Assembly: GCA_046331705.1 (NCBI GenBank)
Contig: JAXLQJ010000023.1
Location: 62,001 to 103,638, forward strand
Length of the DNA: 41,638 nucleotides
DNA from: a bacterium
GTDB lineage: Bacteria > JADJOY01
Direction of reading: 5' to 3'
Below the pieces are notes generated by a model, which was not told the origin of the DNA, searched no databases, and saw nothing but the letters and a program-made list of their open reading frames with translations. Positions 2 to 28,173 of this stretch are shown in pieces. How positions within the stretch are numbered: position 1 is the stretch's first letter; each line of letters begins with the position of its first letter. Both the position numbers and the translations under genes were made by a program.

Positions 2-1489
2 GCCCCCGCCACACCGGTCCTCGGCTTGGTCGCGACCGTGGTCGTGGCGACGATCGCGATGGCTCGCGTGTTGAAGCACCGGCTCCGTCTGGATGCGCAC
101 ACGCTGATGTCGGCGCGCTTCGGCTCGTTCGAGAGCGCGGGTATGTCGCGACGGCGCGCGCGGGTGGTCGCGGCGGCGTGCGCCACGGCGGCGGTGGTCT
201 TGGCGTCGCGCGGGCTGGGCGCGGACGCCGCCGGCGCCACCGGATTCTTCTTCGGCGCCGGCACGCTCATGCTCCTGGCCTCGCTCTACGCGGCGGCGGC
301 GTTCTTGCGCCCACCCGACCGCATCCACTCGCGTCCGATCACCTTCCTCGCCCTCGGCCGGCTGAGCGGCGGCCGCCGCCTGACGCGCTCGCTGGCCACC
401 CTCGGCATGCTCGCGAGCGGGATGTTCCTGGTGGTCGCGGTGAACGCGTTCCGTCAGGGCGACGACTCCACGATCGGCACCGGCGGGTTCGCGATGTTCG
501 CCAGGACCTCCATCCCCGTCGCACACGACCTCGGCAGCGCAGCGGGCGTGGCTCGTCTCGGGCTCGATGCGTTTCCCGGCGTCCGCTTCCTGCCGTTTCG
601 GCTGCGCGACGGCGACGAGGCAAGCTGCCGGAACCTCAATCAGCCGAAGCGGCCGCTCGTCCTCGGCGTGGATGCCGCGGCCATCCAGGCACGCAATCCG
701 TTCCGGTTCGCGCGCACGCTCACGCCGGTCTCCCAGCCCTGGTCGTTGCTCGCGCGCCAGGACGAGCCGGACGTGGTGCCGGGCGTCGTCGACGACGCGG
801 TCGCGCAATGGGTCCTCAAGGTGGGGCTCGGCGACACCCTCGCGTACGTCGACGAGGCGGGGCGGCCGTTTCGAATCCGCATCGTGGGGACCCTCGCGAG
901 CTCGATCCTGCAGGGTTACGTGGTGATCGACGCGCGTGCCTTCGCGGCGCGCTTTCCGTCGATCGCGGGCAATCGCGTCTTCCTCGTCGATCTGCCGAGC
1001 GCCGAATACGCGGCGTTCGATCGGCGTCTGAAGGAGTCGGCGCTCGAGGACTACGGACTCACGACCGTGCCGGCGAGCGAGCGGCTCGCGGCGTTCGAGG
1101 CCGTGCAGAACACGTACCTGTCGATCTTCTCGGTGGTGGGTGGCCTGGGGCTGGTGCTCGGATGCTTGGGGCTGGCATTGGTGGTGCTGCGCAACGTCCT
1201 GGAGCGCCGCGCCGAGCTCGCCATCCTGCTCGCCGTGGGGTTCTCGAAAGGGCGGGTGCGCCGGCTGGTGTTGCTCGAGCACGTGGGGCTCTTGGTGCTG
1301 GGCGCGACGCTCGGGATCGTGGCGGCGGTCGTCGCCGTGGGGCCTGCGGCGATCGAGCGCGGCCGACTGCCGCTCGACTTCCTGCTCGGCACCGCCGTCG
1401 CGGTGATCGCGAACGGTCTGGTGGCGACGATCGCAGCCACCGCGCTCGCTCTGCGCGGCGAGCTGGTGCCGGCGCTGCGTCGCGAGTAG
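2..1489 (+). CDS. FtsX/MacB-like ABC transporter permease, C-terminal part (5' end outside window)
   Basis: Several TM segments, a periplasmic region, and a FtsX-like C-terminal block 'QNTYLSIFSVVGGLGLVLGCLGLALVVLRNVLERRAELAILLAVGF'. Confidence 0.85.
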   Translation, partial: APATPVLGLVATVVVATIAMARVLKHRLRLDAHTLMSARFGSFESAGMSRRRARVVAAACATAAVVLASRGLGADAAGATGFFFGAGTLMLLASLYAAAAFLRPPDRIHSRPITFLALGRLSGGRRLTRSLATLGMLASGMFLVVAVNAFRQGDDSTIGTGGFAMFARTSIPVAHDLGSAAGVARLGLDAFPGVRFLPFRLRDGDEASCRNLNQPKRPLVLGVDAAAIQARNPFRFARTLTPVSQPWSLLARQDEPDVVPGVVDDAVAQWVLKVGLGDTLAYVDEAGRPFRIRIVGTLASSILQGYVVIDARAFAARFPSIAGNRVFLVDLPSAEYAAFDRRLKESALEDYGLTTVPASERLAAFEAVQNTYLSIFSVVGGLGLVLGCLGLALVVLRNVLERRAELAILLAVGFSKGRVRRLVLLEHVGLLVLGATLGIVAAVVAVGPAAIERGRLPLDFLLGTAVAVIANGLVATIAATALALRGELVPALRRE

Positions 1490-1671
1490 CGCGCTCGCAC
1501 GGTCCGCAGTGCCCGCGTCGTTCGCCGCCGGGTCGGCGAGCCGGCGCGTTGATGGTCGTCGCGCACGTCACCTATGTTGAAGGCCCTTCGCGCGCCGTCG
1601 ACGCCACCGCCGTGATGGGCGGCGTGCTCGAACGACCCGACCCGCTTCCCCCGTCGCGATCGAATCCGAGG

Positions 1672-3171
1672 ATGGCGATGGCGTCGCGACCGAGACGAAT
1701 CGCGCGTGAATGTGCGCTCGCGCCATGGGGCCGCACGGCGATCCTGCTCGCTCTCGGGGTGCTCGCCATGGCGGCGCCCACGCCGGCGGCGCCCGCGCCG
1801 GCGCAGCGGCCGATCGGCTGGCGCATGGACGGGACCGGCAACTTTCCGGCCGCGACACCCACGCTCGAGTGGTCCGCCACGCATCACGTGCGGTGGATGA
1901 AGCGGATGCCGAGCTGGAGCAACTCGTCGCCGATCCTGGTCGGCGAGCGGCTCTTCGTGTCCTCCGAGCCTGACCGGCTGCTGTGCTTGCGCGCCGCGGA
2001 CGGCGAGATCCTGTGGCAGAGAGCGAGCCCGCCCGAGGACGCGGTCGCCAACCCCATCCCCGCGCCGCCCTTCCTGCAAGGCAATGCCCGCGAGCGCGAG
2101 CTCACGATGCTGCTCCGGGAAAAGGAGCTCGAGCTGACGCGGATCCGCCAGCGGCTGCGCGCGGCGCCGGACGACGAAGGGCTCGCGAGCCTCGCCCGCG
2201 CGCACGCCGCCGAGGCCGCGGCGATGCGCGAGGAGCTGACCGCGCTCGCTCCCCACATCGGGCCGCAGATCGACGAGGAGAGCGGGCTCAGCTCGCCCAC
2301 GCCCACCAGCGACGGAGACGCGGTCTACGTGCTCTACGCCACCGGCATCGCGGCGTCCTACGACCTCTCCGGCCAGCGCCGCTGGATCCGCTTCCTCGAC
2401 CAGCCCGCGGACCGCAACGACGTGTCGAGCTCGCCGGTGCTCGCCGGCGACACCCTGGTGGTGCTCGTGCGCGATCTGATCGGCCTCGACAAGGCGACCG
2501 GCGAGGTGCGCTGGCGCGTCGACGTGCCCCATCGCAACGGCACGCCGATCGCGTTCACGATCGACGCGCAGACCTTCGTGATCACGCCGAGCGGGCACTG
2601 CGTGCGCGTCGCCGACGGCGCGATCGTCGCGAGCGACCTCGGCAACCTCGACTACGCGTCGCCGGTGATCCGCGACGGCGTGATCTACCTGATCGCCGAG
2701 GAGTCGCGGGCGCTGCGCATCCCCGAGCACCCGACGGAACCGCTCGCGTTTCGCACCGAATGGCTCGCGCACGTGAAGGGCTCGCGGTTCTACGCATCGC
2801 CGCTGGTGATCGACGGTCTCGTCTACGCGCTCTCGCGCAATCAGATGCTGACCGTCCTCGACGCCAAGACCGGCGCCGAGGTGTACGTGCAGCGGCTCTC
2901 CCTCGGCGAGATGGGCGGCGTCAACAGCGTCTACTCGAGCCCCACCCAGGGCGGGGGGCACGTGTTCCTGAGCGCGCTCGCCGGCACCACCTTGGTGCTC
3001 GCGCCCGAGCGGACCTTCCGTCCGGTGGCGACCAACACCCTCGAGAAGTTCCGCGCCAGCCCGGTCTTCGACGGCGACCGGATGTTCCTCCGCGGCCACG
3101 AGAATCTCTATTGCATCGCCGCGCCCACGGATGGCGCGCGGCCCGGGAGCGCCGCTCCGGCGGCGCCGTGA
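1672..3171 (+). CDS. Secreted PQQ-binding-like (BamB-type) beta-propeller repeat protein
   Basis: Signal-like segment, 'GWRMDGTG', repeated SSP/ASP..W blades (SNSSPILVG, SSSPVLAG, YASPVI, YSSPT), C-terminal 'MFLRGHENLYCI'. Start codon is approximate. Confidence 0.8.
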   Translation: MAMASRPRRIARECALAPWGRTAILLALGVLAMAAPTPAAPAPAQRPIGWRMDGTGNFPAATPTLEWSATHHVRWMKRMPSWSNSSPILVGERLFVSSEPDRLLCLRAADGEILWQRASPPEDAVANPIPAPPFLQGNARERELTMLLREKELELTRIRQRLRAAPDDEGLASLARAHAAEAAAMREELTALAPHIGPQIDEESGLSSPTPTSDGDAVYVLYATGIAASYDLSGQRRWIRFLDQPADRNDVSSSPVLAGDTLVVLVRDLIGLDKATGEVRWRVDVPHRNGTPIAFTIDAQTFVITPSGHCVRVADGAIVASDLGNLDYASPVIRDGVIYLIAEESRALRIPEHPTEPLAFRTEWLAHVKGSRFYASPLVIDGLVYALSRNQMLTVLDAKTGAEVYVQRLSLGEMGGVNSVYSSPTQGGGHVFLSALAGTTLVLAPERTFRPVATNTLEKFRASPVFDGDRMFLRGHENLYCIAAPTDGARPGSAAPAAP

Positions 3172-3204
3172 GCGTCACCCGCCGCGTGCGATCCCGTCAC
3201 CCGC

Positions 3205-3621
3205 ATGTACGAGCTCACCTACATCGTCGTTCCGTTCCTCGCGGGGCTGGTGGCCTCGTTTCGGCGCCTGGTGGGGCCGAAGCTCGCCGTGCGCGCGGTG
3301 TGGGTGACGGTGCACCAGCTGCTCTTCGCCGCGGCGCTGCTCGGTTGCGGGGTGCTCAGCCTGCGCGAGTTCCTCGCCATCGCGCACGGCCTCAACGGAT
3401 TCGGCCACGTGCTCTTCGTCGTCATCGTGGCATCGCGGTTGGCACTCGGGCTCTTGCCGTGCGTCGATCAGCTGGGCACGCGGGTGCTCGGCGCGGACGC
3501 GCGCGCCGAGGTCTTCCGGCGCCGCCTCGGCGCGTTGCAGCGACCGCTGGGTATCCTGACGATCCTCACCGCCGTGGCGATGCTCTTCGTGCGGCTCAGG
3601 ATCTACTTCACGATCTTCTGA
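3205..3621 (+). CDS. Small integral membrane protein, unknown function
   Basis: 138 aa with about four hydrophobic segments and host-like GC3 codon use. Confidence 0.65.
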   Translation: MYELTYIVVPFLAGLVASFRRLVGPKLAVRAVWVTVHQLLFAAALLGCGVLSLREFLAIAHGLNGFGHVLFVVIVASRLALGLLPCVDQLGTRVLGADARAEVFRRRLGALQRPLGILTILTAVAMLFVRLRIYFTIF

Positions 3622-3670
3622 TGCTCGCTCGCCCATCCCACCCGCGCGCTCGCCCTCCGGGAGCGGCGTG

Positions 3671-4285
3671 ATGGACGCGCCGATCGGCGGCGCGGACCAC
3701 CGCCCGCTGCTGCCGCGGGTGGTGGCGTTGCTCCGCGCCCTCGACGGGGACGTGGGGATCGCGACCGTTGCCGCCGCCACGCTGCGCGCGCTCGACGGAA
3801 GCGCGATCCCGGAGCCCCAGCGTCAGCTGCTGGTGCATGCCGACGGGCTGACGCCCACCCTGGAGCGCCATCTGGGACAGCCGCTCGGTCTGCGCATGCT
3901 GCGCGTTCGTCGCCAGGGCAGCGTGCTGATGCGCGAGATCCTGCTGGTCGCCGCCGGTCTCGATCACGCCGTGAGCTTCGGCGCGATCCGCCTCCACCTC
4001 GACGGCTTCGAGGATGGGGTGCGAAGCGAGATCCTCGCCGGCGTGGCACCGCTGGGGACGATCCTCCGCGATCGGCGCGTCGCGCACCAGCGACGGCTCT
4101 CGGGATTCTTCCAGGTGGCGGCGCGCGCGCTCGTGCCCGCCGGAATCGCCCTTCGCGACGAGGCGACGCTCTACGGCAGGCACAGCGAGCTTCACACGCC
4201 CACCGGCCAAGAGATGGCCGAGGTGGTCGAGATCCTGGCGCCCCTCGCGAGCGCGGCGCGCGGCGAGTCGCTCAGCCGAGCGTGA
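3671..4285 (+). CDS. Chorismate pyruvate-lyase-like protein (Rv2949c/UbiC-fold, DUF98-like)
   Basis: 'QLLVHADGLTPTLERHLG...LMREILL...SFGAIRLHL...ILAGVAPLGTIL...LYGRHSEL...MAEVVEIL' matches the 4-hydroxybenzoate synthase-like pattern. Confidence 0.7.
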   Translation: MDAPIGGADHRPLLPRVVALLRALDGDVGIATVAAATLRALDGSAIPEPQRQLLVHADGLTPTLERHLGQPLGLRMLRVRRQGSVLMREILLVAAGLDHAVSFGAIRLHLDGFEDGVRSEILAGVAPLGTILRDRRVAHQRRLSGFFQVAARALVPAGIALRDEATLYGRHSELHTPTGQEMAEVVEILAPLASAARGESLSRA

Positions 4286-5039
4286 TCGCGGTACCCGCGT
4301 CGACGACGATCGTCTGACCCTGCACGAGGTCGGCGAGCGGGCTCGCCAGGAAGAGCGCCACGTCGGCGACGTCGTCCACCGAGAGGCTGCGGTCGCCGGT
4401 CAGCTCGCGCGAGCGGCGGCGCTCGAACAGGATCTCGCGGTTCGGGATCATGGCGACGGCGTCGGTGTCGACGAGCCCGCTCAGGAGCGCGTTCACGTTC
4501 ACGTTGCGCGGCCCGAGCTCGAGCGCGGCCTGGCGCACCAGCCCTTCGAGAGCGGCTTTCGTCATGCCGACCAGGCCGTACATCGGCAGCGCGTAGCGCG
4601 AGCCATGGCTCGAGAGCGCGATCACCTTGGCGCGCCCGCTGCGGCGTTCGAGCTGGCCCTGGAACGCGCGCAGCAGGTGGATCAGCGCCTCCACGTTGGT
4701 CGCCATGGCCGCCTGGAACTGGCGCGTCGTGGTCTCGACCACGGGCCGGAAGCCGCCGGTGGCCGCGTTCGAGACCAGGATGTCGATCCGCCCGAAGGCG
4801 GCGGCGACGTGCTCCGCCATCTGCTCGACGTCGTCGCTCTCGGAGACGTCCGCCTTCACGAGCACGGCGCGTCGCCCCATCGCGACGATGCGGCCGGCGA
4901 CCTCCTCCGCGGCGGCGCGGCTCGAGACGTAGTTCACCACCACGTCCGCGCCCGCCTGCGCGAGCCGCAGCGCGCACGCGGCGCCGATCCCGCGCGACGA
5001 GCCGGTCACCAGGGCTACCTGGCCGGTGAGATCGATCAT
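4272..5039 (-). CDS. SDR oxidoreductase, FabL-like enoyl-ACP reductase
   Basis: TGSSRGIG cofactor motif, 'VSNAATGGFRP', 'SSHGS', 'YGLVGMTKAALE' (Y-x6-K as in enoyl-ACP reductases), 'GQTIVVDAG'. Confidence 0.85.
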   Translation of the reverse strand: MIDLTGQVALVTGSSRGIGAACALRLAQAGADVVVNYVSSRAAAEEVAGRIVAMGRRAVLVKADVSESDDVEQMAEHVAAAFGRIDILVSNAATGGFRPVVETTTRQFQAAMATNVEALIHLLRAFQGQLERRSGRAKVIALSSHGSRYALPMYGLVGMTKAALEGLVRQAALELGPRNVNVNALLSGLVDTDAVAMIPNREILFERRRSRELTGDRSLSVDDVADVALFLASPLADLVQGQTIVVDAGTAITLG

Positions 5040-5707
5040 GCGCTGCTCCTCTCGTGCGCGCGGAAGCCGACGGCGACGAGGTGCGCGCCGGGAACGTCGC
5101 CGAGCCAGCGCACCCGCACCGCTCGCCCTCGCGCGCGGCGGTCGGTGGCCGTGCCGTGGACGCGATCCGGCTCGCGCTCGACGTGCCAGTCGTCGGGGAC
5201 GAACGCCTCGTCACCGAGCTCCGCCTTGTACGCGGCCTCGCGCGCGCTCCACGTCCAGGGGTCGGGCTCGCCGACGTCCGCTCGCTCGACCACGTCCACA
5301 CCCACGAGATGCGTCGGGCTCGCGACCGCCGCCGCCAGGTGCTCGGCGTGCGCGACCGAGACGTGGAGGCCGAGCCGCTCGCCGCGCGACCACAGCGCCG
5401 GGCGCGCGGGACGCCCGAAACGATCGCGCGAGCGCACCGCGAGCGTCGCGGGATCGAGCGCGCGCGCGCCGAGCACACGCGCCACGGCGAGCTTGGCGGC
5501 GCGCCGTCCCGCGAGCCACTGCGCACGACGGCGGGGATCGGTGAGCAGCTCGGCCTCGAGCCATTCCGCGGGGTGGATGTCGGGCGGGCGCACCTCGCTC
5601 GCCGCCTCCCAGCGCGCGGGATCGTCGGCTGCGGCGATGCGGACGGTGGCGAGCCACGCGGCGGCTTCGGGCAGCGGGCGGGCGTCGCCGTCGACGAGCA
5701 CGTTCAT
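5036..5707 (-). CDS. 4'-phosphopantetheinyl transferase (Sfp-like)
   Basis: 'WLAGRRAAK', 'VSVAH', 'VGVDVV', 'WSAREAAYKA'. ATGA overlaps with both the PKS and the SDR gene. Confidence 0.85.
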   Translation of the reverse strand: MNVLVDGDARPLPEAAAWLATVRIAAADDPARWEAASEVRPPDIHPAEWLEAELLTDPRRRAQWLAGRRAAKLAVARVLGARALDPATLAVRSRDRFGRPARPALWSRGERLGLHVSVAHAEHLAAAVASPTHLVGVDVVERADVGEPDPWTWSAREAAYKAELGDEAFVPDDWHVEREPDRVHGTATDRRARGRAVRVRWLGDVPGAHLVAVGFRAHERSSA

Positions 5708-8700
5708 GGCATGCCCCCGGCGGGATCGAGCACCTCGACGCGATAGCCCTCGGCCCACGCCACGAGTCGGCCCGCGGCGGTACGCAGCTGGAAGTCGAAG
5801 AAGAGGTGGGATTCGGTGCGTTCGCGGAAGCGCGCCGCGACCAGGCACGGCTCGGCCTCGTCGGGCAGCGCCAGCAGCACCAGGCGCGCGAAGCCGCTCG
5901 GCAGGCTGGTGGCCGAAAGCGCCAGTCGCGCGTACACGCCGCACACCACCAAGCAGCCGTCGAGGATGGCGCTCGGCACTCGCCACTCGGCGTGAGGGCG
6001 CGTCGGCCGGAGCGCCGTGGGCGCGGGCGCCAGCAGCTCGCCCCAGGCCCGCTCGCCGCTCACGCCCACGCGTCCGAGCGTGCGCAGCGCCGGGCCGTGA
6101 TAGACGCGTCCCGGCTCGCAATCCTCGGGCGACGCGGGATAGCTCATGTCCCACCAGTCGAGATCGGCGGGTGGAGGCGGAAGGTCCGTCGGCCGCGTCA
6201 CCGCATCCGCGAGGCCGATCTCGGCGCTCTGGTAGATCCGATCCGGCTCGCCGAGCTTGCCCACCTTGGAGATGAAGTCGCCGCGCAAGCTGGCGCGCCA
6301 GCGATCGTGGCCGTGTGCGACCACCTCCACCCGCAACCGCTGCGGAGCGCGGTTGCGGAAGCGCAGCCCCGATTCGATGGAGGCGTTCTCGACCAGCACC
6401 GCCGTGCCGGGCGCGCGGTCCAGCAGCGCCGCCTCGACCAGGGTCTCGAGCCCCACCACCGCGGGCAGGATCGGCTGGCGCTCGAAGCAGTGATCGACGA
6501 GGAAGCGGTCGCGGGTGGGATCGAACGTGACATCGGCGATCCGAAGCGCCGGCTGCTCTTCCACGAGCCCATCGACGATCGCGGTCCGGCGGGTGGCGGC
6601 CACGCTCCCGTCGAGCGCGCGATCGAGCTCGGGTGCGGGCGCGGTGCGATCGAGATCGAGCAGGGTCGCGCGATCCAGGATCACGACCTCGTTCTCGGGC
6701 AGCCCCGCCGCGAGCTCGCGCAGCACGTGCTCGCAGCCCTCCGCCACCGGCATGAACGTCTGACCGCTGGCTTCCAGCGCGAAGCGGCTCTCCGGTCGAA
6801 CCGCCATGCCGACCTCGTCCCAGGCGGGCCAGTGGAAGGTGCAGCCCGCGACACCCGTGCGGCGGCGATGCGCGGTGACGAGCTTCGCGAGCAGATCGCT
6901 GGCGAGGCTGTAGTCGGCCTGTCCGAGGCCGCCGAAGCGACCGCTCACCGAGCCGAAGCCGATGACGTGCTCGATCTCGTCGCCGGCGGTCAGCGCCAGC
7001 AGGTGCTGAAGGCCGAGCACCTTGCTCTCGACCGTGGCGCGCACCTGCGCGGGAGTCTTGCGGGCGAAGTCGCTCGCCGCCTCGATTCCCGCGCCGTGGA
7101 GAATGCCGCGCACCGGCAGCTCGCCGGCGCGCACCGCCGCGAGCATTCGCTCGACGGCCTCGGCGTCGGTGACGTCGGCCGCGTGGTAGCTGTACGCGAC
7201 GCCGGCAGCGCGGTGCCCGGCGAGCGTCTGGTGAAGGTCGATGCGCCGCGTGAGCGCGTCCCACGCTCGCTCGGGGTCCTCGCCGCGCGCGCGCGCTTCG
7301 GCGACGATGCGCGGCCTGAGCTCGCGGCGTCCCGCCGCATCGAGCGCGAGCCATTCGTCGGGCACCGGCGCGAGGGGAGTCGAGCCCACCAGGTGCAGGT
7401 GCACGCCGAGCTGCACCGCGATGGCGCGCGCCACGTGCGCGGTCACGCCGCGGCCGCCGCCGGTCACGATCCACGCGCCGCGCGGGGTGGCGCCAGCGTT
7501 CGCGCAGGGCGGCGGGAGCGCCGGCAGCTCCCGTGGCACCATGCGCAGCTCCTGGTGACGACCGCGTACCCATGCGGTCTCGACACGATCGTCGTCGCTC
7601 GAGAGCGCCGCCACCACGCTCTGCGCCATCACCGCCGGCGGCTCGATGCCGGCGCAATCGACGACCTTCACGCGCAGACCGGGAAGCTCGCGGCGCAACG
7701 CCTTCCAGAGCCCGGTGGCGGCGCCGCCCGCAGGCTCGATCTCGCGCGCGGTACCGAAGCCCAAGTCGCCGCCGAGGCGCGTGAGCGCCACCAGCTCGGC
7801 GCCCGCCAGCGCGTCGCGCTCGCGCAGCGCCACCGCCCAGCGCTGCACCCACTGAAACGGCGCGAGCACGTGCTGCTCGACCCGGCGTCGCCGCTCGCTC
7901 GCGTCGGGGCTCGTCCAGGTGTCGGAGGGCTCGCAGGGGAGGACCCACACCAATCGTCCCGGCGCCGGGGACTCGTCGAGGACGCGCGTCGGATCGCCGA
8001 CCGCGCGCACTTCCGAACCCGCCTCGCCGAGGGCGTGAGCGACGGCGCTCGCCACCGCATCGCTGCCCACGACCCACGTGGCGAGTCGAGCGAGCTGCGC
8101 GCGCGGGCGGGCCTCGGGGGTGGCGGGCAGGCTGCGCAGCACCCAGCGGCGCATGCGACGTCCGGCGCGCGCGGCGGCGCTCTCGGTGGCGTGCGCGTCC
8201 TGCCACCAGCGGCTCGGCTCGAAGTGGAGGAAGCGCTCCGCGTCCGCGCCGTGGCGCGGTCCGGGCGTGACCTCGAAGGTGTCGACGTCGGCGCCGCAGG
8301 CGCGCACGAAGCTCGCCTGGTTGTCCACGCGGCAGACGGTGTTCATGGTGCAGTGGCGGACCTCGCGTCCGCGCGCCAGATCGAAGCGATCGCGCAGCAG
8401 CGCTTGCACCTGCTGGGGCGTGATCGGTCCTTCGGGGAGCAGCGCCCGCGCCCGCTCGAAGCGGTGTCGCGAGTGCTCGGGAATCGCTTCCCCGCCTTCG
8501 AGCAACAGGCTGTGATTGGTGGTGAGGATCCGGTCCACGTCGCGGCGCACGGCGAGAGTCGGGCCGTCGTATTCGAGGTACGCGAGCGCATCGGTGTCGC
8601 GGTGCGAGAGCAGCACGCTCCAGGCGCCGACCCGCGGCCACGCCTCCACGATCGCCAGGGCTTCGTCGAGGGTGCTGGCCTGCTCGAGGATGCGCAGCAC

Positions 8701-11700
8701 CAGCAGCGGGTGGACGCGCCCGAGCGCGCTCAGGTCGCGGGGCCGATCGAGGAGCATGGTGCTCGACACGGTGAGCCCGCGGGCGTTGGTGCCGTTGATG
8801 CCGCCCACCTGTCCCGCGACGCCGAGCACCGCCGCGCGGATGCGGTCCGGCTCGCCATCGCGCGGGGCGCCTTGCGGGTCGCGCACCAGCACCGCGCGGA
8901 CCATCTCGTTGCCGAGCCTGAGCCCCGCGGGGCTGTCCTCGTTGGCGCCGTGCAGCAAGGGGCCGCCGCCGTTGGCCGCGCTCGTCACCGCGAGCTGGGT
9001 GCAACCGGCGGCGTCGAATTGCGGCTCCATCGCCAGGTTGAGCGCGATGATCGACTCGGCGGAGACGTGGGCACCCTCGGCGATGCCACGCATCTCGTCG
9101 AGCGCGGCCTCGTCGTAGTAGGCGGCTTGCTGGCCGAGCGCCTCGCGCGCCAGCGGCAGCTCGTTCGCGCTGCGCACGCCGAGCAGCTCCTGGAAGCGTC
9201 GCAAGGTGGCGTGGATCGCGCCGGCGAACCGCTCCCCGTGGCGACGTCCCATCGCGCGATCGTCGCCGTGCACCGCGAGCACCAGCTCGCGCTCGAGGCT
9301 CGATGGGGCGGCGGTCGCGGCGCCGGCCGTCGCGGCGCCCGCGGCACTGGTGCCGCTCGCGGTGGCGCCGCCGGCGGCGTGCGGCAGCAGCGCTTTTTCC
9401 GTGAGGAAGCGCGCGATGTCGCGCAGCGTGACGAATTGCGCCAGGCTCGCGCCGCCCCCGCCGCCGCTCGGCATCTGGATGCGGAACTGGTCGCGCAGCT
9501 CGCCCAGGAGCCGCGCCTTCTTGATCGAGTCGATCCCGAGGTCGGCTTCCAGGTCCTGATCGAGCGTCACCACCTCCGGCGGGTAGCCGGTTTGCTCGCA
9601 CACGAACTTGACCAGTAGCGCCTCGATCTCGCTCAGGCCGCTCGCTGGCGCCGGTGCCGGCGCGTCCGCGGCTTGCGTGGCGCGGGCCGCGCTCGGCGCC
9701 GCGTGGGTGCGATTCGCATCGTGCGCCTGCGCGACGCGCGTGCGCCGGCGCTGGGTGGCGTCGAAATGAGGGATCGGCGCGACGCTCGGCGCGGGAAGCT
9801 CGCGGGTGCGAGCGTAGGGCCAGACGCCGGAGGCGCCCGCAGCGGCGCCGCCGGCCGCGGCGCTCGGCGCGTGGGCCGCGGGCCAGAGGTCTTGGGTTTC
9901 GAGCAGCGCGCGCACCCGCAACAGCTGCTCGACGGCCGGGACCTTGGGGTGATCGCAACACACCACCGCCACCGGCTCCGACTTGAGAATGCTGCGGATC
10001 AGCCGGGTCAGCACGGTGCGCGGACCGACCTCCACGAAGACCCGCGCGCCGTCGGCGTAGGCTCGCCGCACCATCTCCACGAAGCGCAGCGGCTCGGTCA
10101 GCTGATCGACCAAGCGCGCGCGGATCACGCTCGGCTCGGCGACGTACTCGTTGCCGATGCCGCTCAAGAGCGGGACGCGCGGCGGCGCCAGCGACGATTC
10201 CGCCAGCACCGTCGCGAGCGCCGGCTTGGCGTCGGCGAGCAGCGCGCTGTGGAACGGCTGTGGCACCGGCAGCACTCGCGCGACCTCGCCGGTCGCCTCG
10301 ATGAGCGTCACGACCTGGCCGACCAGCGCGGTCTCCACCGCCAGCACCGTCTGCTCGGGGCTGTTGTAGTTGGCGGGCGCCACGAACCCGCGACCCGAGA
10401 GCGCCGCGACCAGCGCCGCGATCTGCTCCGGCGACGCGGAAGTGGAGACGAGCTTGCCGCGCGGCGCGCCGAGGGCGTCGAGCGCTCGGCACCGGCCGTG
10501 GGTCGCGCGCAGGCCGGTCGCCAGCGACCAGGCGCCGGTGGCCACCAGGGCGGGGTATTCGCCGTAGCTGTGACCGAACACCACCGAAGGCACGACACCC
10601 AGGCTCGCGAGCACGCGGTGCACCAGCAGATCCGCCGCGAACACCGAGATCTGCGTGCGCCAGGTGTCCTGCCCGAGCCGCTCGGCGCCCTCGTCCGACC
10701 ACGCGATCTCCGCGAAGCTCGGCTCACCAATCCGAGCCAGCTCACGGTCCAGCTCCTCGAGCACCGTGCGCGTGACCGGGTAACCGTCGACCAAGCCGCG
10801 CAGCATCCCCGCGTATTGCGATCCCTGACCGCTGAAGGCGAACGCCAGCCCTGGGGTGGCTGCGGGCCGCGCGTGCAGGAACACGCCCTGCTCGTGGAGC
10901 GCCGAGGCGAGCGCGTGCGAATCGGGCGCCTCGCGCACCGAAGCGAGCTTGGTGCGAAGCGCTTCCGGCTCGGACGCGACGATGGCGAGCCGCCACGCGT
11001 CGCGCTCGCCGAAGCGCGTCTCGCGCGCGGCCAGCTCCCAGGCCAGGGCCGGATCGGCGAGCAGCGCGCGAATTCGCGTCGCCAGCGCTTCCCGCGACTC
11101 GGCGCCGAGTCGCACCAGGCGTGGTCCTTGCGGCGCCGCCGCCACGACCTCGACGCCGCTCGGCGCGGCTCTCGCGACCAGCGCACGCCACGGCTCGACG
11201 CGCGCCTCGACGCTCGCGTGGTACGCGAGCCCGCGCAGGCCGAGCGCGTGGACCGCGATGGGCACCCCGCTCGATCCCGGCGCGCGCGCGAGCTCGTGCT
11301 CGCGGCGCGTGGCGACCGCCAGCGAGTCGACGAGCGCGACCAGGCCGCTCGCGCCCTGGGTCATGCCGAGGCGATCGACCGGCGAGATCGCGAGCGCGGG
11401 CGCGTCTCCGCCGTTTCGCGCGTGCAGGCGCTCCTCCGTCGCGGCGGCGGCGCTCGCCGCGGAACCGAAGCGCGCCACCAGCGCCGGCGGCGTCGCGCCG
11501 TCTCGCGCCGCGGCGCGGGCCACCGCGTCGCCGAGCGCCGCCAGCGCTCCGTCGCGGCTCGACGCGGCGGAGACGTCGCCGAGCAGCGCGTACGCCTGCC
11601 GCTCGGCGGCCAGTGGCGAGTCCGCGCGCGCCAGCAGCAGCGCGACCGCGCCCTCGGCGAGGCGGAACTCGCCGCCGCCCGGGCCCGCCAGCCGGCCCAT

Positions 11701-13953
11701 GCGATCGTATTGCTCGAAGCGCGTGTGATGGAGCGTGCGCTGGGCGCCGCAGCACACCGCCAGCTCGCATTCGCCGGCGCGCAGGGCCTCGAGCCCGGCG
11801 GCGAGGCTCGCGAGCCCGCTCGCCTCCTCGGCGTCCATGGCCGCGCACGGCCCCATGAAATCGAAGTGCTTCGAGATGCGGCTCGCGAGCGTGCTGCTCG
11901 AGAAGCTGCCGGCCTCGTCGGCGATCGGGAAGCGCTCCCGCAGTCGCGCGGCGCTCAGGGACAGCAGCGCCTTGCGCTCGCCGTCGGCGATGCCCGCCGC
12001 CGCGAGCTCGGCCTCCAAGTGACGCAACAGCTCGGGGGCGCGCAGGCCCAGGTTGAGGTCGCCGGTGAAGTCGCCGCCGAAGACCGAGCCCACGTAGACC
12101 GCCGTGCGGCGACGGTCGTCGCTGGTGAGCTGCTCCAGGCCAGCGAGGCGTAGCGCCTGCCCGACCGCGTCGAGCAGCATGAACTGAAGCGGATCGGCCT
12201 GTTCGAGCTGCTTGGGCGGGATCTTGAACGCGCGCCAATCGAGCTGCCAGCCGCGCACGAACCCGGCCCGCGCGTCGCGCACGCGGTACGGGCCGCCCTC
12301 GGGATTCACGTAGAGTCGCGCGTCCCAGCGCTCGGGATCGGGCTCGGCGAACGGCATCGGCTGGTCGCCGAGCGCCGCGAAGCGCTCGACGTCGAAGGCG
12401 CCCGGCAGCACCACGCCCACGCCGAGGACCACCACCGGCGACGGCGCGATCGAAGCGGCGGCGACGCGCGCCGTCGCCGCGGTGCTCGCGGTCTTCGCGG
12501 ACGCGCGTGCCTTCCGGCCCTTGGCGCGGGAGCGCGGGGCCGTGTCGAGCGGGCGTTCGACCACCACGTGATAGTTGAGGCCGCCGATGCCGAACGCATC
12601 GACCGCGGCGCGGCGCGGCTCGCCGTCGCGATCGGGCCACGGCTCGAGCGCGCGAAGCGGTCGAAACGGCACCTCGTCCCACGCGACCTCGGGCGTGAGG
12701 TTCACCAGGTTCGCCGTCGGCGGCACCGCGCCCTCGCGCATCGCCAGCAGCATCTTCACCAGCGCCGCGAGCCCCGCCGTCTCGCGGGTGTGACCGATGT
12801 TGCTCTTCGCCGAGCCGATCGGGCGCGGCGCCGCGGTCGTGCCGCCGAGTGCGGTGAATGCCTCGGTGAGGGCGCGGATCTCGGTGGCGTCGCCCACCTG
12901 CGTGCCGGTGGCGTGCGCCTCCACGACCTGCACGTCGGCGGGGCTCAGGCCGTCGTGATAGGCGCGGCGGATCGCTTCCACCTGCCCGGCTTGCAGCGGC
13001 GCCCAGAGGCTCTTGCCGCGGCCGTCGCAGCTTCCGCCGATGCCGCGCAGCACTCCCAGGATCGGGTGCCCCGCGGCGCGGGCCTCGGCCAGACGCTCGA
13101 CCAGGATCGCGGCATAGCCGTCCGAGCTCACGAAGCCGTCGGCGCGCGCGTCGAATGGGAAGCTGCCGGTGCGGCTCAGCGCCTGGGCCTGGCTGAAGAG
13201 CACCAGGCTCGACCATTGGTTGTAGCTGCAGCCGCCCACGATCGCCCGGTCGATCTCGCCGGCGTGGATGGCGCGAGCCGCGAGGTCGAGCGCCGCGAAG
13301 CTCGACGCGCACGCCGCGTCCACCGCCATGTACGGACCCGACGTGCGCAGCCGTCGCGCGATCCATCCGGCGGCGGCGTTGGGCTGGGTGAACGGCCCGC
13401 CGTCCTCGCGGATGCGCGGGAAGCGCTCTCGGGCGCCGCGGATCAAGCGCTCCGCGAGCTCGCCCGCGAGCGCCGCGGGCAGCGCGGCGAGCTCGGGCAG
13501 CGTGCGCAGGCTCGCGACCATCGACTCGATGCTGGTGGCGAAGCCGATGTCGCTGACCAGCGTGCTGCCGCGCGCGTGGCCCACGTAGACGCCCACGCGC
13601 CGTCCCGCGAGCGCTGCGGGGTCGACCCCGGCGTTGGCGAGCGCCGCCAGCACCGTGTCCAGGAACCAGAGGTGCGCGCGATCGGCGCTCGCGAGCTCGT
13701 CGGCGTCGAGGCCGAGACCGGATGGGTCGAAGTCCTCGTCCGGAACCGTGCCGCCGAGCTCGGTGTAGGTCTTGCCGGAGATCGCGGCGCCGGGCTGGAA
13801 GTAGAGCGCGCGGTCGAGGCGTGACTGCGGCAACGGACCGATCGCGCTGCGTCCGTCCCGCAGCAGCTCCCAATACGCGTCGAGGTTCGCCGCCCCCGGT
13901 AGGCGGGCGGCCATTCCCACGATTGCCAGGGGCTCAGCGTCGAGTCGGTGCAC
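5704..13953 (-). CDS. Iterative type I PKS / PfaA-like synthase: KS - inactive KS (CLF-like) - AT - ACP - C45 Ntn-hydrolase/acyltransferase - KR - DH
   Basis: KS: DAACASS (Cys 13309-13311), EAHATGT, NIGHT. Second KS has DAEEASG. AT: GQGSQ, GHSYG, PFHS. ACP: LGIDSIK (Ser 9526-9528). C45-like: 'AAGCTQLAV...LLHGANED'. KR: GGGRGVT, YSLAS. DH: 'FLVDHCFERQPILP' and 'LDGC'. GTG start at 13953 follows GGAGAAAGG. Confidence 0.92.
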   Translation of the reverse strand: MHRLDAEPLAIVGMAARLPGAANLDAYWELLRDGRSAIGPLPQSRLDRALYFQPGAAISGKTYTELGGTVPDEDFDPSGLGLDADELASADRAHLWFLDTVLAALANAGVDPAALAGRRVGVYVGHARGSTLVSDIGFATSIESMVASLRTLPELAALPAALAGELAERLIRGARERFPRIREDGGPFTQPNAAAGWIARRLRTSGPYMAVDAACASSFAALDLAARAIHAGEIDRAIVGGCSYNQWSSLVLFSQAQALSRTGSFPFDARADGFVSSDGYAAILVERLAEARAAGHPILGVLRGIGGSCDGRGKSLWAPLQAGQVEAIRRAYHDGLSPADVQVVEAHATGTQVGDATEIRALTEAFTALGGTTAAPRPIGSAKSNIGHTRETAGLAALVKMLLAMREGAVPPTANLVNLTPEVAWDEVPFRPLRALEPWPDRDGEPRRAAVDAFGIGGLNYHVVVERPLDTAPRSRAKGRKARASAKTASTAATARVAAASIAPSPVVVLGVGVVLPGAFDVERFAALGDQPMPFAEPDPERWDARLYVNPEGGPYRVRDARAGFVRGWQLDWRAFKIPPKQLEQADPLQFMLLDAVGQALRLAGLEQLTSDDRRRTAVYVGSVFGGDFTGDLNLGLRAPELLRHLEAELAAAGIADGERKALLSLSAARLRERFPIADEAGSFSSSTLASRISKHFDFMGPCAAMDAEEASGLASLAAGLEALRAGECELAVCCGAQRTLHHTRFEQYDRMGRLAGPGGGEFRLAEGAVALLLARADSPLAAERQAYALLGDVSAASSRDGALAALGDAVARAAARDGATPPALVARFGSAASAAAATEERLHARNGGDAPALAISPVDRLGMTQGASGLVALVDSLAVATRREHELARAPGSSGVPIAVHALGLRGLAYHASVEARVEPWRALVARAAPSGVEVVAAAPQGPRLVRLGAESREALATRIRALLADPALAWELAARETRFGERDAWRLAIVASEPEALRTKLASVREAPDSHALASALHEQGVFLHARPAATPGLAFAFSGQGSQYAGMLRGLVDGYPVTRTVLEELDRELARIGEPSFAEIAWSDEGAERLGQDTWRTQISVFAADLLVHRVLASLGVVPSVVFGHSYGEYPALVATGAWSLATGLRATHGRCRALDALGAPRGKLVSTSASPEQIAALVAALSGRGFVAPANYNSPEQTVLAVETALVGQVVTLIEATGEVARVLPVPQPFHSALLADAKPALATVLAESSLAPPRVPLLSGIGNEYVAEPSVIRARLVDQLTEPLRFVEMVRRAYADGARVFVEVGPRTVLTRLIRSILKSEPVAVVCCDHPKVPAVEQLLRVRALLETQDLWPAAHAPSAAAGGAAAGASGVWPYARTRELPAPSVAPIPHFDATQRRRTRVAQAHDANRTHAAPSAARATQAADAPAPAPASGLSEIEALLVKFVCEQTGYPPEVVTLDQDLEADLGIDSIKKARLLGELRDQFRIQMPSGGGGGASLAQFVTLRDIARFLTEKALLPHAAGGATASGTSAAGAATAGAATAAPSSLERELVLAVHGDDRAMGRRHGERFAGAIHATLRRFQELLGVRSANELPLAREALGQQAAYYDEAALDEMRGIAEGAHVSAESIIALNLAMEPQFDAAGCTQLAVTSAANGGGPLLHGANEDSPAGLRLGNEMVRAVLVRDPQGAPRDGEPDRIRAAVLGVAGQVGGINGTNARGLTVSSTMLLDRPRDLSALGRVHPLLVLRILEQASTLDEALAIVEAWPRVGAWSVLLSHRDTDALAYLEYDGPTLAVRRDVDRILTTNHSLLLEGGEAIPEHSRHRFERARALLPEGPITPQQVQALLRDRFDLARGREVRHCTMNTVCRVDNQASFVRACGADVDTFEVTPGPRHGADAERFLHFEPSRWWQDAHATESAAARAGRRMRRWVLRSLPATPEARPRAQLARLATWVVGSDAVASAVAHALGEAGSEVRAVGDPTRVLDESPAPGRLVWVLPCEPSDTWTSPDASERRRRVEQHVLAPFQWVQRWAVALRERDALAGAELVALTRLGGDLGFGTAREIEPAGGAATGLWKALRRELPGLRVKVVDCAGIEPPAVMAQSVVAALSSDDDRVETAWVRGRHQELRMVPRELPALPPPCANAGATPRGAWIVTGGGRGVTAHVARAIAVQLGVHLHLVGSTPLAPVPDEWLALDAAGRRELRPRIVAEARARGEDPERAWDALTRRIDLHQTLAGHRAAGVAYSYHAADVTDAEAVERMLAAVRAGELPVRGILHGAGIEAASDFARKTPAQVRATVESKVLGLQHLLALTAGDEIEHVIGFGSVSGRFGGLGQADYSLASDLLAKLVTAHRRRTGVAGCTFHWPAWDEVGMAVRPESRFALEASGQTFMPVAEGCEHVLRELAAGLPENEVVILDRATLLDLDRTAPAPELDRALDGSVAATRRTAIVDGLVEEQPALRIADVTFDPTRDRFLVDHCFERQPILPAVVGLETLVEAALLDRAPGTAVLVENASIESGLRFRNRAPQRLRVEVVAHGHDRWRASLRGDFISKVGKLGEPDRIYQSAEIGLADAVTRPTDLPPPPADLDWWDMSYPASPEDCEPGRVYHGPALRTLGRVGVSGERAWGELLAPAPTALRPTRPHAEWRVPSAILDGCLVVCGVYARLALSATSLPSGFARLVLLALPDEAEPCLVAARFRERTESHLFFDFQLRTAAGRLVAWAEGYRVEVLDPAGGMP

Positions 13954-14086
13954 CGAAGGATGCCTTTCTCCGAGATCGCGAGGATCCGGATCGCAGCGCG
14001 TCGCGCGTCGCGCGGGACCCATCGGCGCACGGCGTCGCAACCCAACATCGTAGGCACCTCGGACCTCGCGATGCCAGCGCTTTCTG

Positions 14087-14115: not shown

Positions 14116-14290
14116 CTCGGCGGTTTTCGTCGTCGTTCCGAGCTGGATCCGGATCGGATCGAGGTTTGGCCCGAACGATGAACCGCGCGTGGGCTAGGTG
14201 GGACTACCGATCCGCGGTGCGGCCGATTCGGCGCGTCGTTCGCTCGCGCGGGCGATTGCCAGGCGCGCGGCGGCCGACGAAGTTCGCCGC

Positions 14291-15520
14291 ATGGGCGGCG
14301 TGGAGCGGTCGGGCAGCGGACGCGATCCGACCCTCGACGTCTTGCGCGGCCTCACGATCGCCGCGGTCACCGCGTACCACTTCCACGCGGATACCCGCGG
14401 GCTCGCGCTGCCGCCGGATCTGCCGCACGCGTTCCTGGCGGCGGTGCGGGCGCACGATCCGCGCGGCGCGCTGGGCACCGTCGCGCGCATCTGCGTCGCC
14501 GCGCCGGCGTATCGGCTCGATCTCTTCTTGTTCGTGACCGGCGTGGTGCTGGCGCGCGCGCCGCGCCGGCCGACGGTCGAGCTCTGGAAGCGTCGCGCTC
14601 GCGACGTGCTGCCCAACTACTGGCTCGGGAGCGTCGCGGTCGCGGCGGTGCTGGTGGTGCTCGCCGCACTTCGCAGCGCGCTGCTCGGCACGCCGCTCGG
14701 GAACGAGATCCACGACGGCACGCGGCTGGCGCGCGCTCCCTACGTGTTCGACGCGCTGGACCTGGCGCGCTCGCTCGCGGTGCTGGGTCGTTTCGAGGAC
14801 GTGCGCTGCTTCCAGGTGGTGGCGCCCTCGATGTGGTACGTGCTGCTGCTGCTGCAGGCGTATCTGCTCTTCCCGGCGCTGCGTGCGCTTCGTGATCGCG
14901 TCGGCGCGCCGGCCTTCCTCGCGGCGGTGCTGGCGCTCACCGCGCTCGGGCGCTGGCTCGTGTTCCGCTTCGATCCGCTCGCGCGCTTCGGGCCCAATCC
15001 CACCGTCCTCTACTTCATCCCGTTTCGTCTCGCGCCGGTGGCGCTCGGGATGGTCGCGAGCGCTGGGATGGGGCGGGCATGGCGCGCGCCGCGGCGCGCG
15101 CTCGCCTACGCGATCGCCCTGCCTGCGCTCGCGTGGGTCGCGATCACGTTCGGCCTCGCGGCGCGCTCGAATCAGCCAGGGACGCTCGCGGGTGTGGTTG
15201 GCCCGGTGGCGCCGCTCGCGCTCGGGATTCCCGCGCTGCTGTGGCTGGCGCTCGCTGCGCGGCTCACGCCGGGGCTGGGGGCGGGGCTCGGCTGGGCGGG
15301 CCAGCACTCGCTCTCGATCCTGGTCGTGCAGGACGCGCTGCGACTCGTCGTGGGAACGCTGGTGCGCTTCGACGTGACGCTCGAACGCTGGTTCTGGGTG
15401 CTGCTGGTCCCGTATCTGGGAGCGAGCGCGCTGCTGGCGCGTGGCTGGGATCCGCTCGCGGCGCGCTTTCGCGACCGGATCTGGCCCCTCCCGCCGCGCT
15501 CGCCGCGAGCCTCCGCGTGA
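14291..15520 (+). CDS. Acyltransferase family 3 (OafA/YrhL-like) membrane protein
   Basis: 'RDPTLDVLRGLTIAAVTAYH', 'LDLFLFVTG', 'KRRARDVLPNYW', 'MWYVLLLLQAYLLFP', 'GQHSLSILVVQ'; about 10 TM helices. Confidence 0.8.
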   Translation: MGGVERSGSGRDPTLDVLRGLTIAAVTAYHFHADTRGLALPPDLPHAFLAAVRAHDPRGALGTVARICVAAPAYRLDLFLFVTGVVLARAPRRPTVELWKRRARDVLPNYWLGSVAVAAVLVVLAALRSALLGTPLGNEIHDGTRLARAPYVFDALDLARSLAVLGRFEDVRCFQVVAPSMWYVLLLLQAYLLFPALRALRDRVGAPAFLAAVLALTALGRWLVFRFDPLARFGPNPTVLYFIPFRLAPVALGMVASAGMGRAWRAPRRALAYAIALPALAWVAITFGLAARSNQPGTLAGVVGPVAPLALGIPALLWLALAARLTPGLGAGLGWAGQHSLSILVVQDALRLVVGTLVRFDVTLERWFWVLLVPYLGASALLARGWDPLAARFRDRIWPLPPRSPRASA

Positions 15521-15546
15521 CGCGCGAGCAGCGTCGAGTCGCGCGG

Positions 15547-16227
15547 TCAGCGAGCGGGCCGGGCGAGATAGACGACGTAACGGCGCGCGCCACGCGCCGG
15601 GTGCGCGACCTCGACGGTGAAGCCGGCAGCGCGCAGGCGGCGTTCGAACGACGCCACCGGCCCTTCCGACCACACCGCGAGGACTCCGCGGGGCGCGAGC
15701 GCCCCGCTTGCTCGCGCCAGCGCCGCCGCGCCGAAGACGTGATCGTCGGTGGGATCGCCGCTGCCCGGCCGCGGGCCTTCGAAGAGATCGAGCACGATGG
15801 CGTCGAAGCGCGGCGCCGGCGCGGTGCTGGCGCGGGCGATCACCTGGGCGACGTCGCCGAGCGCCAGCGTGACGCGCGGGTCGTCGAGGACGTTCGCGGT
15901 GAGCGCCGCCAGCGGGCCGCGCACCCAGCGCGCCACGGCCTCGTGCAGCTCGGCCACCACCACCGCCGCGCCCGGCGGTAGCGCGTCGAGCGCGGCGCGC
16001 AGCGTGTAGCCCATGCCGAGCCCCGCCACCAGCACGCGCGGCGCGGCGATCCCCGCGAGCGACTGGCACGCGAGCGCCCCGAGAGCTTGCTCCGAGCGCT
16101 GCTGCGTGCTCGTCATGAGCACGCGCCCGTCGCGCAGGATCAGGTAGTCGCGCTCGCCCCGCTCCCGGAGCTCGAGCGCGCCGTCGCCGGTCTCGACGCG
16201 CTCGAGGGTGCGCCAGGGGCGAGCCAT
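15547..16227 (-). CDS. Spermidine synthase-like SAM-dependent transferase
   Basis: 'VLMTS...SEQALG', 'RVLVAGLGMGYTL', 'VVVAEL', 'FDAIVLDL'. Confidence 0.85.
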   Translation of the reverse strand: MARPWRTLERVETGDGALELRERGERDYLILRDGRVLMTSTQQRSEQALGALACQSLAGIAAPRVLVAGLGMGYTLRAALDALPPGAAVVVAELHEAVARWVRGPLAALTANVLDDPRVTLALGDVAQVIARASTAPAPRFDAIVLDLFEGPRPGSGDPTDDHVFGAAALARASGALAPRGVLAVWSEGPVASFERRLRAAGFTVEVAHPARGARRYVVYLARPAR

Positions 16228-16237
16228 GTCGAGCGCT

Positions 16238-16786: not shown

Positions 16787-16818
16787 GGGTGCGTCTCCTC
16801 TTCTCGGGGCGTGGTGAG

Positions 16819-17517: not shown

Positions 17518-17520
17518 GCG

Positions 17521-17578
17521 TGAATCACCATTTCACAAAACGATTGACGGTTCAATAATACGAGAGCATATTCGAAAC
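17521..17578. promoter_or_regulatory. Divergent promoter region with candidate TetR operators
   Basis: Palindrome ATTGA-CGGT-TCAAT (17543-17556) overlaps TTGACG(-35)-17 nt-CATATT(-10, 17567-17572). Second inverted repeat TGAA-N7-TTCA at 17521-17535. Confidence 0.6.
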
Positions 17579-28157: not shown

Positions 28158-28173
28158 AGATTCAAATTGCTCG

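Follow-up and report, generated by a model that had tools for sequence, protein, structure and literature searches.

The locus described here raises the question of how an iterative megasynthase without a visible thioesterase sets free its finished chain, and whether an enzyme domain lodged in its middle could do so. The window, by which we mean the whole stretch analysed (41,638 nucleotides; contig JAXLQJ010000023.1, positions 62,001 to 103,638 of the forward strand, assembly GCA_046331705.1, a bacterium of the lineage JADJOY01), carries on its minus strand a gene for a type I iterative polyketide synthase (PKS) that resembles the polyunsaturated fatty acid (PUFA) synthases. Between its acyl carrier protein (ACP) and ketoreductase (KR) domains lies a segment that an earlier note had taken for an acyltransferase of peptidase family C45, the family of isopenicillin-N acyltransferase (IAT), and for a point at which the synthase might cut itself. 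We find that this segment is almost certainly a genuine C45 domain with an intact site. The domain and its key residues, all on the minus strand, are located as follows.

8266..9288, minus strand, C45 or IAT-like N-terminal nucleophile (Ntn) hydrolase domain, residues 1585-1925 (NCBIfam match 1592-1890, corresponding to 8371-9267)
9001..9006, minus strand, Gly1679-Cys1680, predicted autoproteolytic site and nucleophile (codon check, structural alignment)
8935..8943, minus strand, Asn1700-Glu1701-Asp1702, counterparts of IAT Asn119-Trp120-Asp121 (profile alignment to 2x1c)
8461..8517, minus strand, Asn1842 (in a TNH motif, 8515-8517) and Arg1860 (8461-8463), counterparts of IAT Asn246 and Arg268

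Identification of the C45 domain

The NCBIfam model NF040521 (C45_proenzyme) matches residues 1592-1890 with an E value of 1.7e-45 (155.7 bits; cut-off, 85), and since the match extends over positions 2-289 of the 313 in the profile, the proenzyme is represented here by its alpha (pro) part as well as by its beta part. Pfam PF03417 (AAT) is found at residues 1737-1887 (E 2.2e-9, 37.8 bits versus a cut-off of 23.2). A single-sequence phmmer search of the segment against solved structures returned chance-level matches only (E ~0.07), whereas a profile of 29 related sequences recovers IAT (2x1c) at E 1.6e-24 and, more weakly, acid ceramidase and NAAA (E 1.3e-9 to 3e-7); the link to IAT thus requires a profile or a fold comparison, a single sequence being insufficient. 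An AlphaFold2 model of the domain, built on the same 29-sequence alignment, has a mean pLDDT of 92 and a pTM of 0.92, with confidence dipping only at model residues 41-50 and 81-100, the latter leading into the cysteine. The IAT precursor 2x1c is the top Foldseek match of the model (E 1.4e-17, TM 0.76) and also ranks first in VIA-align (Z 34.9, rmsd 2.7, 315 residues aligned).

The proposed C45/Ntn-hydrolase identity therefore stands, with PF03417 above its threshold and a predicted structure that has an Ntn fold closest to IAT. All of the motifs quoted by the earlier note are found in the translation of the minus-strand open reading frame (ORF) 5704-14040, namely VHGDDRAMGRRHG at PKS residue 1590 (9235-9273), EMRGIAEGA at 1649, SAESIIALN at 1660, LLHGANED at 1695, GINGTNARGL at 1747 and TTNH at 1840, and a correction is needed only at the segment boundary, which had been placed at 9290 while the frame begins at 9288.

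Catalytic residues

The Gly-Cys-Thr motif is intact within AAGCTQLAV, and Cys1680 is encoded by TGC at 9001-9003, just as the earlier note had it. The beta chains of mature Ntn hydrolases begin with their nucleophile. Cys1680 is model residue 96, and in the VIA-align rows shown this residue is where the alignment of the mature beta chains of NAAA, acid ceramidase, PvdQ, cephalosporin acylase and MacQ starts; in the predicted structure Cys1680 occupies the position of the Ntn N-terminal nucleophile.

The catalytic residues of IAT are given as Cys103, Asn119, Asp121, Asn246 and Arg268 (PMC13044924, citing Bokhove et al. 2010), and all five have counterparts here: C1680, N1700, D1702, N1842 and R1860. 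In the profile alignment with 2x1c the IAT sequence NWD pairs with NED, TNH pairs with TNH, and S-W-N-R pairs with S-R-H-R; the last block of this alignment is one residue off the printed numbering, and the counterparts of N246 and R268 were assigned by motif (TNH, SxxR). A gapless HMMER alignment leaves the Gly-Cys pair four residues out of register with that of IAT, and the equivalence is fixed by the structural comparison; in the profile alignment the domain has four residues fewer than IAT in the loop that leads to the cysteine and four more in the stretch behind it. Conservation among related domains is high at each of the other four sites (N1700 in 143/154, D1702 in 144/154, N1842 in 155/162 and R1860 in 155/157).

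The synthase and its coupled genes

The window is about 72-75% G+C near the C45 domain, which gives rise to many long spurious frames, and the real genes were picked by their third-position G+C. An antisense ORF at 5054-5746 (plus strand) and other long GC-rich frames over the PKS gene are artefacts of the 74% G+C. The PKS gene and its remaining domains are these.

5704..14040, minus strand, type I iterative, PUFA-synthase-like PKS gene, 2778 aa from TTG 14040 (ORF and translation, Pfam)
12706..13935, minus strand, ketosynthase (KS), residues 36-445, active-site Cys244 in DAACASS (PF00109/PF02801 and motif)
11041..12360, minus strand, second KS-like domain resembling a chain-length factor (CLF), about residues 561-1000 with approximate boundaries (second ketoacyl-synt stretch in Pfam)
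9961..10842, minus strand, FabD-like acyltransferase (AT), residues 1067-1360, GHSYGEY at 1156 (PF00698)
9466..9615, minus strand, single ACP, residues 1476-1525 (PF00550)
6814..7479, minus strand, KR, residues 2188-2409, TGGGRGV at 2193 (PF08659)
5722..6531, minus strand, PKS-type dehydratase (DH), residues 2504-2773 (PF21089, just under cut-off, and PF14765)

The database gene call starts at ATG 14022 (2772 aa), and the identical stored protein P0002 begins six codons later than TTG 14040. A Pfam scan, in which 11 families are listed, gives the domain order KS, Cys-less CLF-like KS, AT, ACP, C45, KR and DH, in agreement with the layout described from the motifs. The second KS has DAEEAS where the first has DAACASS, Glu739 replacing the active cysteine in the aligned motif, and it is therefore without an active cysteine, like a chain-length factor. 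The AT scores 153.6 bits with TIGR00128 (fabD) in NCBIfam, under the cut-off. The ACP serine motif GIDSIK (residues 1502-1507, 9520-9537) lies just upstream of the C45 segment, and a flexible linker of about 40 residues, rich in Ala, Gly and Thr, follows the ACP. The 11 Pfam families found in the synthase include neither a thioesterase (PF00975) nor a terminal reductase (PF07993), and the absence of both that had been remarked on for the synthase extends to the coupled operon genes, where Pfam gave short-chain dehydrogenase/reductase (SDR) families for one gene and a weak ACPS match for the other; the genome beyond the coupled genes was not searched. Two small nearby ORFs (3205-3621 and 3668-4285) gave no hotdog or thioesterase signal.

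The genes next to the PKS are as follows.

5036..5707, minus strand, Sfp-type phosphopantetheinyl transferase (PPTase)-like gene, 223 aa, its ATG overlapping the PKS stop TGA (5704-5706) as ATGA
4272..5039, minus strand, FabL-like SDR, candidate trans-acting enoyl reductase, 255 aa (PF13561, E 1e-56), its ATG overlapping the PPTase stop
14198..15520, plus strand, divergent membrane acyltransferase, Acyl_transf_3 (PF01757), adjoining the PKS only in the window (W), L001 and L004

Overlapping stops and starts show that the PKS is translationally coupled to the PPTase-like gene and to the FabL-like reductase. The PPTase-like ORF has a Pfam ACPS match at E 0.19 only, with language-model features at 0.92 and a predicted-structure TM of 0.77-0.81 to ACPS clusters, and clear ACPS genes hold the same slot in other loci. 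For the reductase, NF005975 (FabL) is the best of 233 NCBIfam matches at 252.7 bits, under the equivalog cut-off of 328; its sequence YGLVGMTK has a Tyr-x6-Lys spacing, which we take to be a mark of enoyl reductases.

Related synthases and loss of the cysteine

Uncharacterised homologues with the same layout, whose possible existence the earlier note had raised, are numerous. A word-indexed search returned 27 proteins of 1656-3241 aa that share the domain set, from Polyangia, Myxococcota and Planctomycetes metagenome-assembled genomes, some of them named by NCBI 'C45 family autoproteolytic acyltransferase/hydrolase'. An exhaustive search of representatives at 50% identity gave 564 proteins at E <= 1e-3, 154 at E <= 1e-10 and 93 at E <= 1e-30, most of the matches being far longer than a stand-alone C45 enzyme.

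The domain was aligned in 172 proteins (176 stretches); 151 of the stretches cover the nucleophile site, and 127 of these have Cys there. Among proteins of 1300 aa or more, 98 span the five sites, and 86 of these have the whole C-N-D-N-R pentad. A FastTree phylogeny was made from 129 rows with at least 270 domain residues, shorter rows and those not covering the Cys column having been dropped; its supports are local only and it carries a warning of long-branch joins near the root. In this tree Cys is kept in 110 rows and the whole pentad in 109, and the window copy falls within a starred clade of 36 rows that is entirely C-N-D-N-R. Pfam scans of ten Cys-less and six Cys-bearing long relatives reveal a common order of KS, KS, AT, (ACP), C45, KR(-KR) and DH, with neither a thioesterase nor a terminal reductase in any of the 16. 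A thioesterase carried by Cys-less synthases and missing from Cys-bearing ones was considered as a discriminating test and rejected, the scans giving no discrimination.

The C45 domain is conserved like KR, DH and AT, and more than the CLF and the linkers. Its identity to the domains of L001, L004, L005, L054 and L066 is 84, 81, 52, 42 and 40%, respectively, and the corresponding values for the KR are 84, 79, 63, 46 and 43%.

Gene order was compared in 28 loci (the window, four from genome contigs, one from G360 and 22 from metagenomes). The full pentad is present in all 27 loci covering the sites, a count biased to intact copies because the metagenome search patterns included the NED and MNT motifs. 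Of the 23 loci whose sequence continues for 1 kb or more past the PKS, 21 have the SDR directly downstream (the exceptions are L059 and L065), and within the genus the SDR is better conserved than the PKS (95% vs 76-83%). A PPTase gene separates PKS and SDR in 13 of 24 loci. Linkage of the Acyl_transf_3 gene is seen only within the genus, and its membership in the system is uncertain. Bacterial GH3 enzymes have hardly been studied; a gene for a GH3 acyl-acid amido synthetase follows the SDR in six of 23 loci (L048, L049, L050, L051, L053 and L062; for example L062:16287-17996), and these six cluster on a small domain tree (one change, weak support). Its position beside the synthase suggests that the PKS product becomes an amino-acid conjugate. 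GH3 enzymes adenylate free carboxylic acids (PMC5640695), and since a free acid is required, the presence of GH3 in one subclade favours hydrolysis to the free acid there.

Among individual loci, L066 carries upstream of the synthase (422-5641) a fatty-acyl reductase-type gene, a four-ACP protein and an acyl-AMP ligase, and downstream (15546-20660) a protein of 1704 aa with AMP-binding, KR, ACP and thioesterase parts; here the same synthase is the centre of a larger lipid pathway. The Polyangia relative L005 has an amidase-signature gene (PF01425, 3203-4852) directly upstream of the PKS and no PPTase gene between PKS and SDR.

A proposed role in chain release

The operon has the parts for condensation (KS/CLF), loading (AT), carriage of the chain (ACP), keto reduction (KR) and dehydration (DH), and it probably encodes an enoyl reductase and a PPTase as well. 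Release is the one function without a candidate, and the intact, ACP-tethered C45 domain is the one domain without an assigned job. A tentative scenario, to which we give not quite an even chance, is that the domain cuts itself between Gly1679 and Cys1680 and removes the completed acyl chain from the ACP, with hydrolysis as the likeliest route. Taken separately, a domain that is active and self-cleaving seems slightly favoured, and chain release as its role stands a shade further below even than the scenario as a whole. The Gly1679-Cys1680 bond would be cut by the domain itself, as in other C45 proenzymes, to give a 175.4-kDa chain (KS, CLF, AT, ACP and C45 alpha) and a 118.6-kDa chain (C45 beta, KR and DH), and the two would stay joined through the alpha/beta interface of the domain. 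The freed N-terminal Cys1680 would attack the acyl-phosphopantetheine thioester on the tethered ACP, whose arm would be the same as that of IAT's acyl-CoA donor, to form an acyl-S-Cys intermediate, from which water would take up the acyl group and a largely reduced fatty or polyketide acid would come off in free form, an amine being the less likely acceptor. The C45 domain would in this way fill the job of the missing thioesterase. Self-cleavage and release, like the starter loading considered below, are what we infer from membership of the family. AzsT, a stand-alone C45 enzyme, is described as acting in vitro on a substrate bound to a carrier protein (PMC10445470). In a further variant, which we think unlikely, Cys1680 would be a transacylase that moves the finished chain from the ACP directly to an amine, so that an N-acyl amide lipid would be made on a self-cut, non-covalent two-chain synthase.

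Several observations weigh against the release scenario. Of the IAT substrate-binding residues Trp120, Phe122, Phe123 and Tyr166, the first three are Glu1701, Ser1703 and Pro1704 here, so the substrate is not that of IAT and the chemistry of IAT is not simply transferable; on these residues the domain falls outside IAT proper and is not an IAT orthologue. We found a carrier-bound substrate for a single bacterial C45 enzyme, AzsT, and the bond that it cleaves is an amide and not the thioester, as described in PMC10445470. Because the SDR scores under the FabL cut-off, its part as an enoyl reductase is putative. The window holds no GH3 gene, and the two GH3 genes of the genome are on other contigs. 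Finally, the nucleophile column lacks Cys in 24 of the 151 stretches (13 Gly, 5 Ser, 3 Thr, 2 Ala and 1 Phe), the non-Cys state of 19 of the 129 tree rows requires at least five changes, most Cys-less copies retain N, D, N and R together with the whole domain, and Pfam finds a thioesterase in none of the 16 long relatives, including the ten Cys-less synthases. With the cysteine lost at least five times, the domain kept and no thioesterase gained, it follows that related synthases function without the nucleophile, and that either the domain has some role independent of the cysteine or release can go another way; with the loss seen in about one-sixth of related domains, the domain cannot be the sole release route across the family.

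This pattern fits a structural explanation, in which the C45 fold would be a fixed architectural element between the ACP and KR-DH, serving docking, spacing or oligomerisation, with catalytic residues that are left over or bind the pantetheine arm without turnover, and with release performed in trans by something else. Retention of the domain after at least five independent losses of the cysteine, with no compensating thioesterase, is what such a scaffold would show, as is a domain order kept in 16 of 16 long relatives. The scaffold would nevertheless leave unexplained why the full catalytic set is intact in the window copy and throughout its 36-row clade, and the retention of the cysteine and of the whole pentad in most of the tree is hard to account for without selection on catalysis; even in the clade with Gly at the nucleophile position the other pentad residues are conserved, which suggests a ligand-binding site still in use. 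We consider a scaffold fairly unlikely for the window copy, though less so than the two catalytic explanations that remain.

One of these is an on-line amidase or editing hydrolase that acts on an ACP-bound intermediate and not in final release; like AzsT it might take off a protecting or starter group bound through an amide, or, in the manner of a type II thioesterase, it might clear mis-primed or stalled acyl groups. Hydrolysis of the succinyl amide of a carrier-bound intermediate by AzsT in vitro (described in PMC10445470) offers a precedent, IAT is followed in the structural ranking by fatty-acyl amidases (acid ceramidase, Z 30.7; NAAA, Z 29.7), and a dispensable editing role would fit the repeated loss of the cysteine; on the other hand the coupled operon has no source of an amine-bearing or protected starter, and the release step would be left without a candidate. 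KS-CLF systems, both type II and PUFA-type, usually prime themselves from malonyl-ACP, which speaks against a protected starter, and we rate the amidase or editing hydrolase as unlikely, somewhat more so than the scaffold. The other is a role in starter loading, in which the Ntn cysteine would move an acyl group from acyl-CoA to the ACP or KS. The domain adjoins the ACP, IAT uses acyl-CoA donors (as stated in PMC13044924), and some relatives, such as L066, have acyl-AMP ligase and extra ACP genes nearby, so that unusual starters may exist in the family; but the FabD-like AT and the KS-CLF pair are normally enough for priming, the acyl-binding residues of IAT are not conserved, and the operon of the window has no CoA ligase, all of which make loading improbable. 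Release by the C45 domain of the window, with the limits set out above, is the reading that we prefer.

Comparison with known systems

The IAT of Penicillium chrysogenum (PenDE, peptidase family C45; PDB 2x1c, 2x1d and 2x1e) shares with the domain the alpha-beta-beta-alpha Ntn fold and the Gly-Cys processing site, and here too the acyl donor would be held on a phosphopantetheine arm. IAT is a stand-alone fungal enzyme of 357 aa, however, whereas the domain described here is internal to a 2778-aa bacterial PKS and is only 18-19% identical to it. AzsT and Tri14, of the azaserine and triacsin pathways, are likewise bacterial C45 proteins in natural-product pathways with a carrier-bound substrate (in the account of PMC10445470). 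By its description, AzsT differs in being a separate protein that hydrolyses an N-succinyl amide and not a thioester (PMC10445470). Acid ceramidase and NAAA, the next-best structural matches, are likewise Cys-dependent Ntn hydrolases, for which autoproteolysis and long fatty-acyl substrates are the rule, but they belong to another MEROPS family, are lysosomal and eukaryotic, hydrolyse amides and are only weakly related in sequence.

The synthase itself is closest in organization to the PUFA synthases of the PfaA/PfaC type and to related KS-AT-ACP-KR-DH PKSs, which likewise have the ACP before KR-DH, a KS-CLF pair, a PPTase and a trans enoyl reductase. TIGR02813 (PfaA) is the second-best NCBIfam match of the PKS, at 552.5 bits and below the cut-off of 1010.1; the synthase functions in the manner of PUFA-type iterative synthases without being a PfaA. 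Compared with PUFA synthases it has the KS-CLF fused ahead of the AT, one ACP and no FabA-type dehydratase in the Pfam list, and its partner reductase is a FabL-like SDR, unlike the PfaD type of enoyl reductase that PUFA synthases use. To our knowledge the described PUFA synthases carry no C45 domain. The myxobacterial PUFA synthase Pfa3 reportedly has a fused AGPAT acyltransferase domain and would thus be a megasynthase with its own off-loading acyltransferase in place of a thioesterase; that domain is said to be of unrelated fold and chemistry (a glycerolipid O-acyltransferase), terminal and not internal, and not to involve self-cleavage.

Genome context and distribution

The window is part of contig 23 of an 8.2-Mb genome that is 96% complete. 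Its phylum-level group has six genomes in the collection, and the domain is present in five of them including this one: in all four other genomes of the same genus and not in the single genome of the other genus. Of 401 genomes sampled from the phylum to which the Polyangia relative (G006) belongs, 205 contain a C45 match at E <= 1e-20, and among the matches listed only G006 and G360 have it in frames of more than 2000 aa, the rest being stand-alone or in frames of 1300-1500 aa. About a dozen matches are in these 1300-1500-aa frames (for example G111:C40:8276-9433, G118:C2:3273-4448 and G173:C167:12702-13646), which are neither stand-alone nor this PKS and may represent another undescribed fusion. 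We also note two further C45-family matches in the genome of the window, namely a gene that scores above the NCBIfam cut-off (G000:C5:39678-40730, L012) and lies in a frame of 587 aa, and a weak one on contig 18.

Near-identical DNA (at least half of the sampled words) occurs in 16 runs, labelled as activated sludge, wastewater, sludge or digester metagenomes, and the 20 rows with such DNA come from 15 studies. Three RNA-labelled runs yielded contigs with pieces of the operon of 150-260 nt with 0-1 differences (for example X19, 7189-7384 and 13794-13983; X17, 5274-5476 and 11126-11361; X20, 7628-7852 and 9878-10068), and among the pieces listed none of at least 100 nt lies inside 8215-9290. 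DNA can occur in such libraries, and these pieces are weak hints of expression that we do not count as evidence of transcription.

Elsewhere in the window, a 226-aa ORF at 15547-16227 (minus strand) has a weak spermidine-synthase-like methyltransferase-fold match (E 0.002) and is conserved beside the acyltransferase gene in L004 with 78% identity. A TetR-family regulator gene (16819-17517, minus strand) is divergent from a cytochrome P450 gene (17474-18994, plus strand) and overlaps its start; the regulator is conserved beside the PKS region in L004 as well. Between 22000 and 29315 the G+C content falls to 0.60-0.65, several ORFs are without a family and a tyrosine integrase gene (27759-29315, minus strand) lies at the edge, and this region may be an integrated element. 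That the organism has an outer membrane is indicated by a PagL-like lipid A deacylase (21160-21705) and a BamB/PQQ beta-propeller protein (1486-3171). Scans of the window for tRNA genes and Rfam families returned nothing.

Significance

No published description of a C45 or Ntn domain inside a PKS or fatty acid synthase (FAS) was found in full-text literature searches, which leave most subscription journals and supplements outside their reach, and the earlier note, which knew of no characterised PKS with this layout, is borne out by the same searches. The text passages of Shulse and Allen 2011 (PMC3098273), which list PUFA-like cluster types, name none with a peptidase or C45 domain. The automatic names given by NCBI indicate that annotation pipelines already recognise the C45 domain in such proteins. 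What we describe is a known enzyme family in an undescribed fused context, in which the logic of maturation and release is possibly new.

The 93 representative clusters found at E <= 1e-30 make up a large family, spread over Myxococcota-like, planctomycete and other uncultured bacteria, in which a dedicated reductase and a PPTase are conserved, and the copy in the window, with its complete catalytic set, lends itself well to testing. Chain release decides the product of a PKS or FAS, and it is known to be solved by thioesterases, reductases, condensation-type domains or AT-like enzymes; a built-in Cys-dependent Ntn hydrolase, if true, would add another solution. Should transfer to an amine prove to be its chemistry, the release logic would be one unknown for PKS or FAS enzymes. 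We know of no megasynthase that requires autoproteolysis to mature, and if the synthase described here does cut itself it would be the first such megasynthase, with the Ntn fold providing a natural way to hold the two halves of a PKS together.

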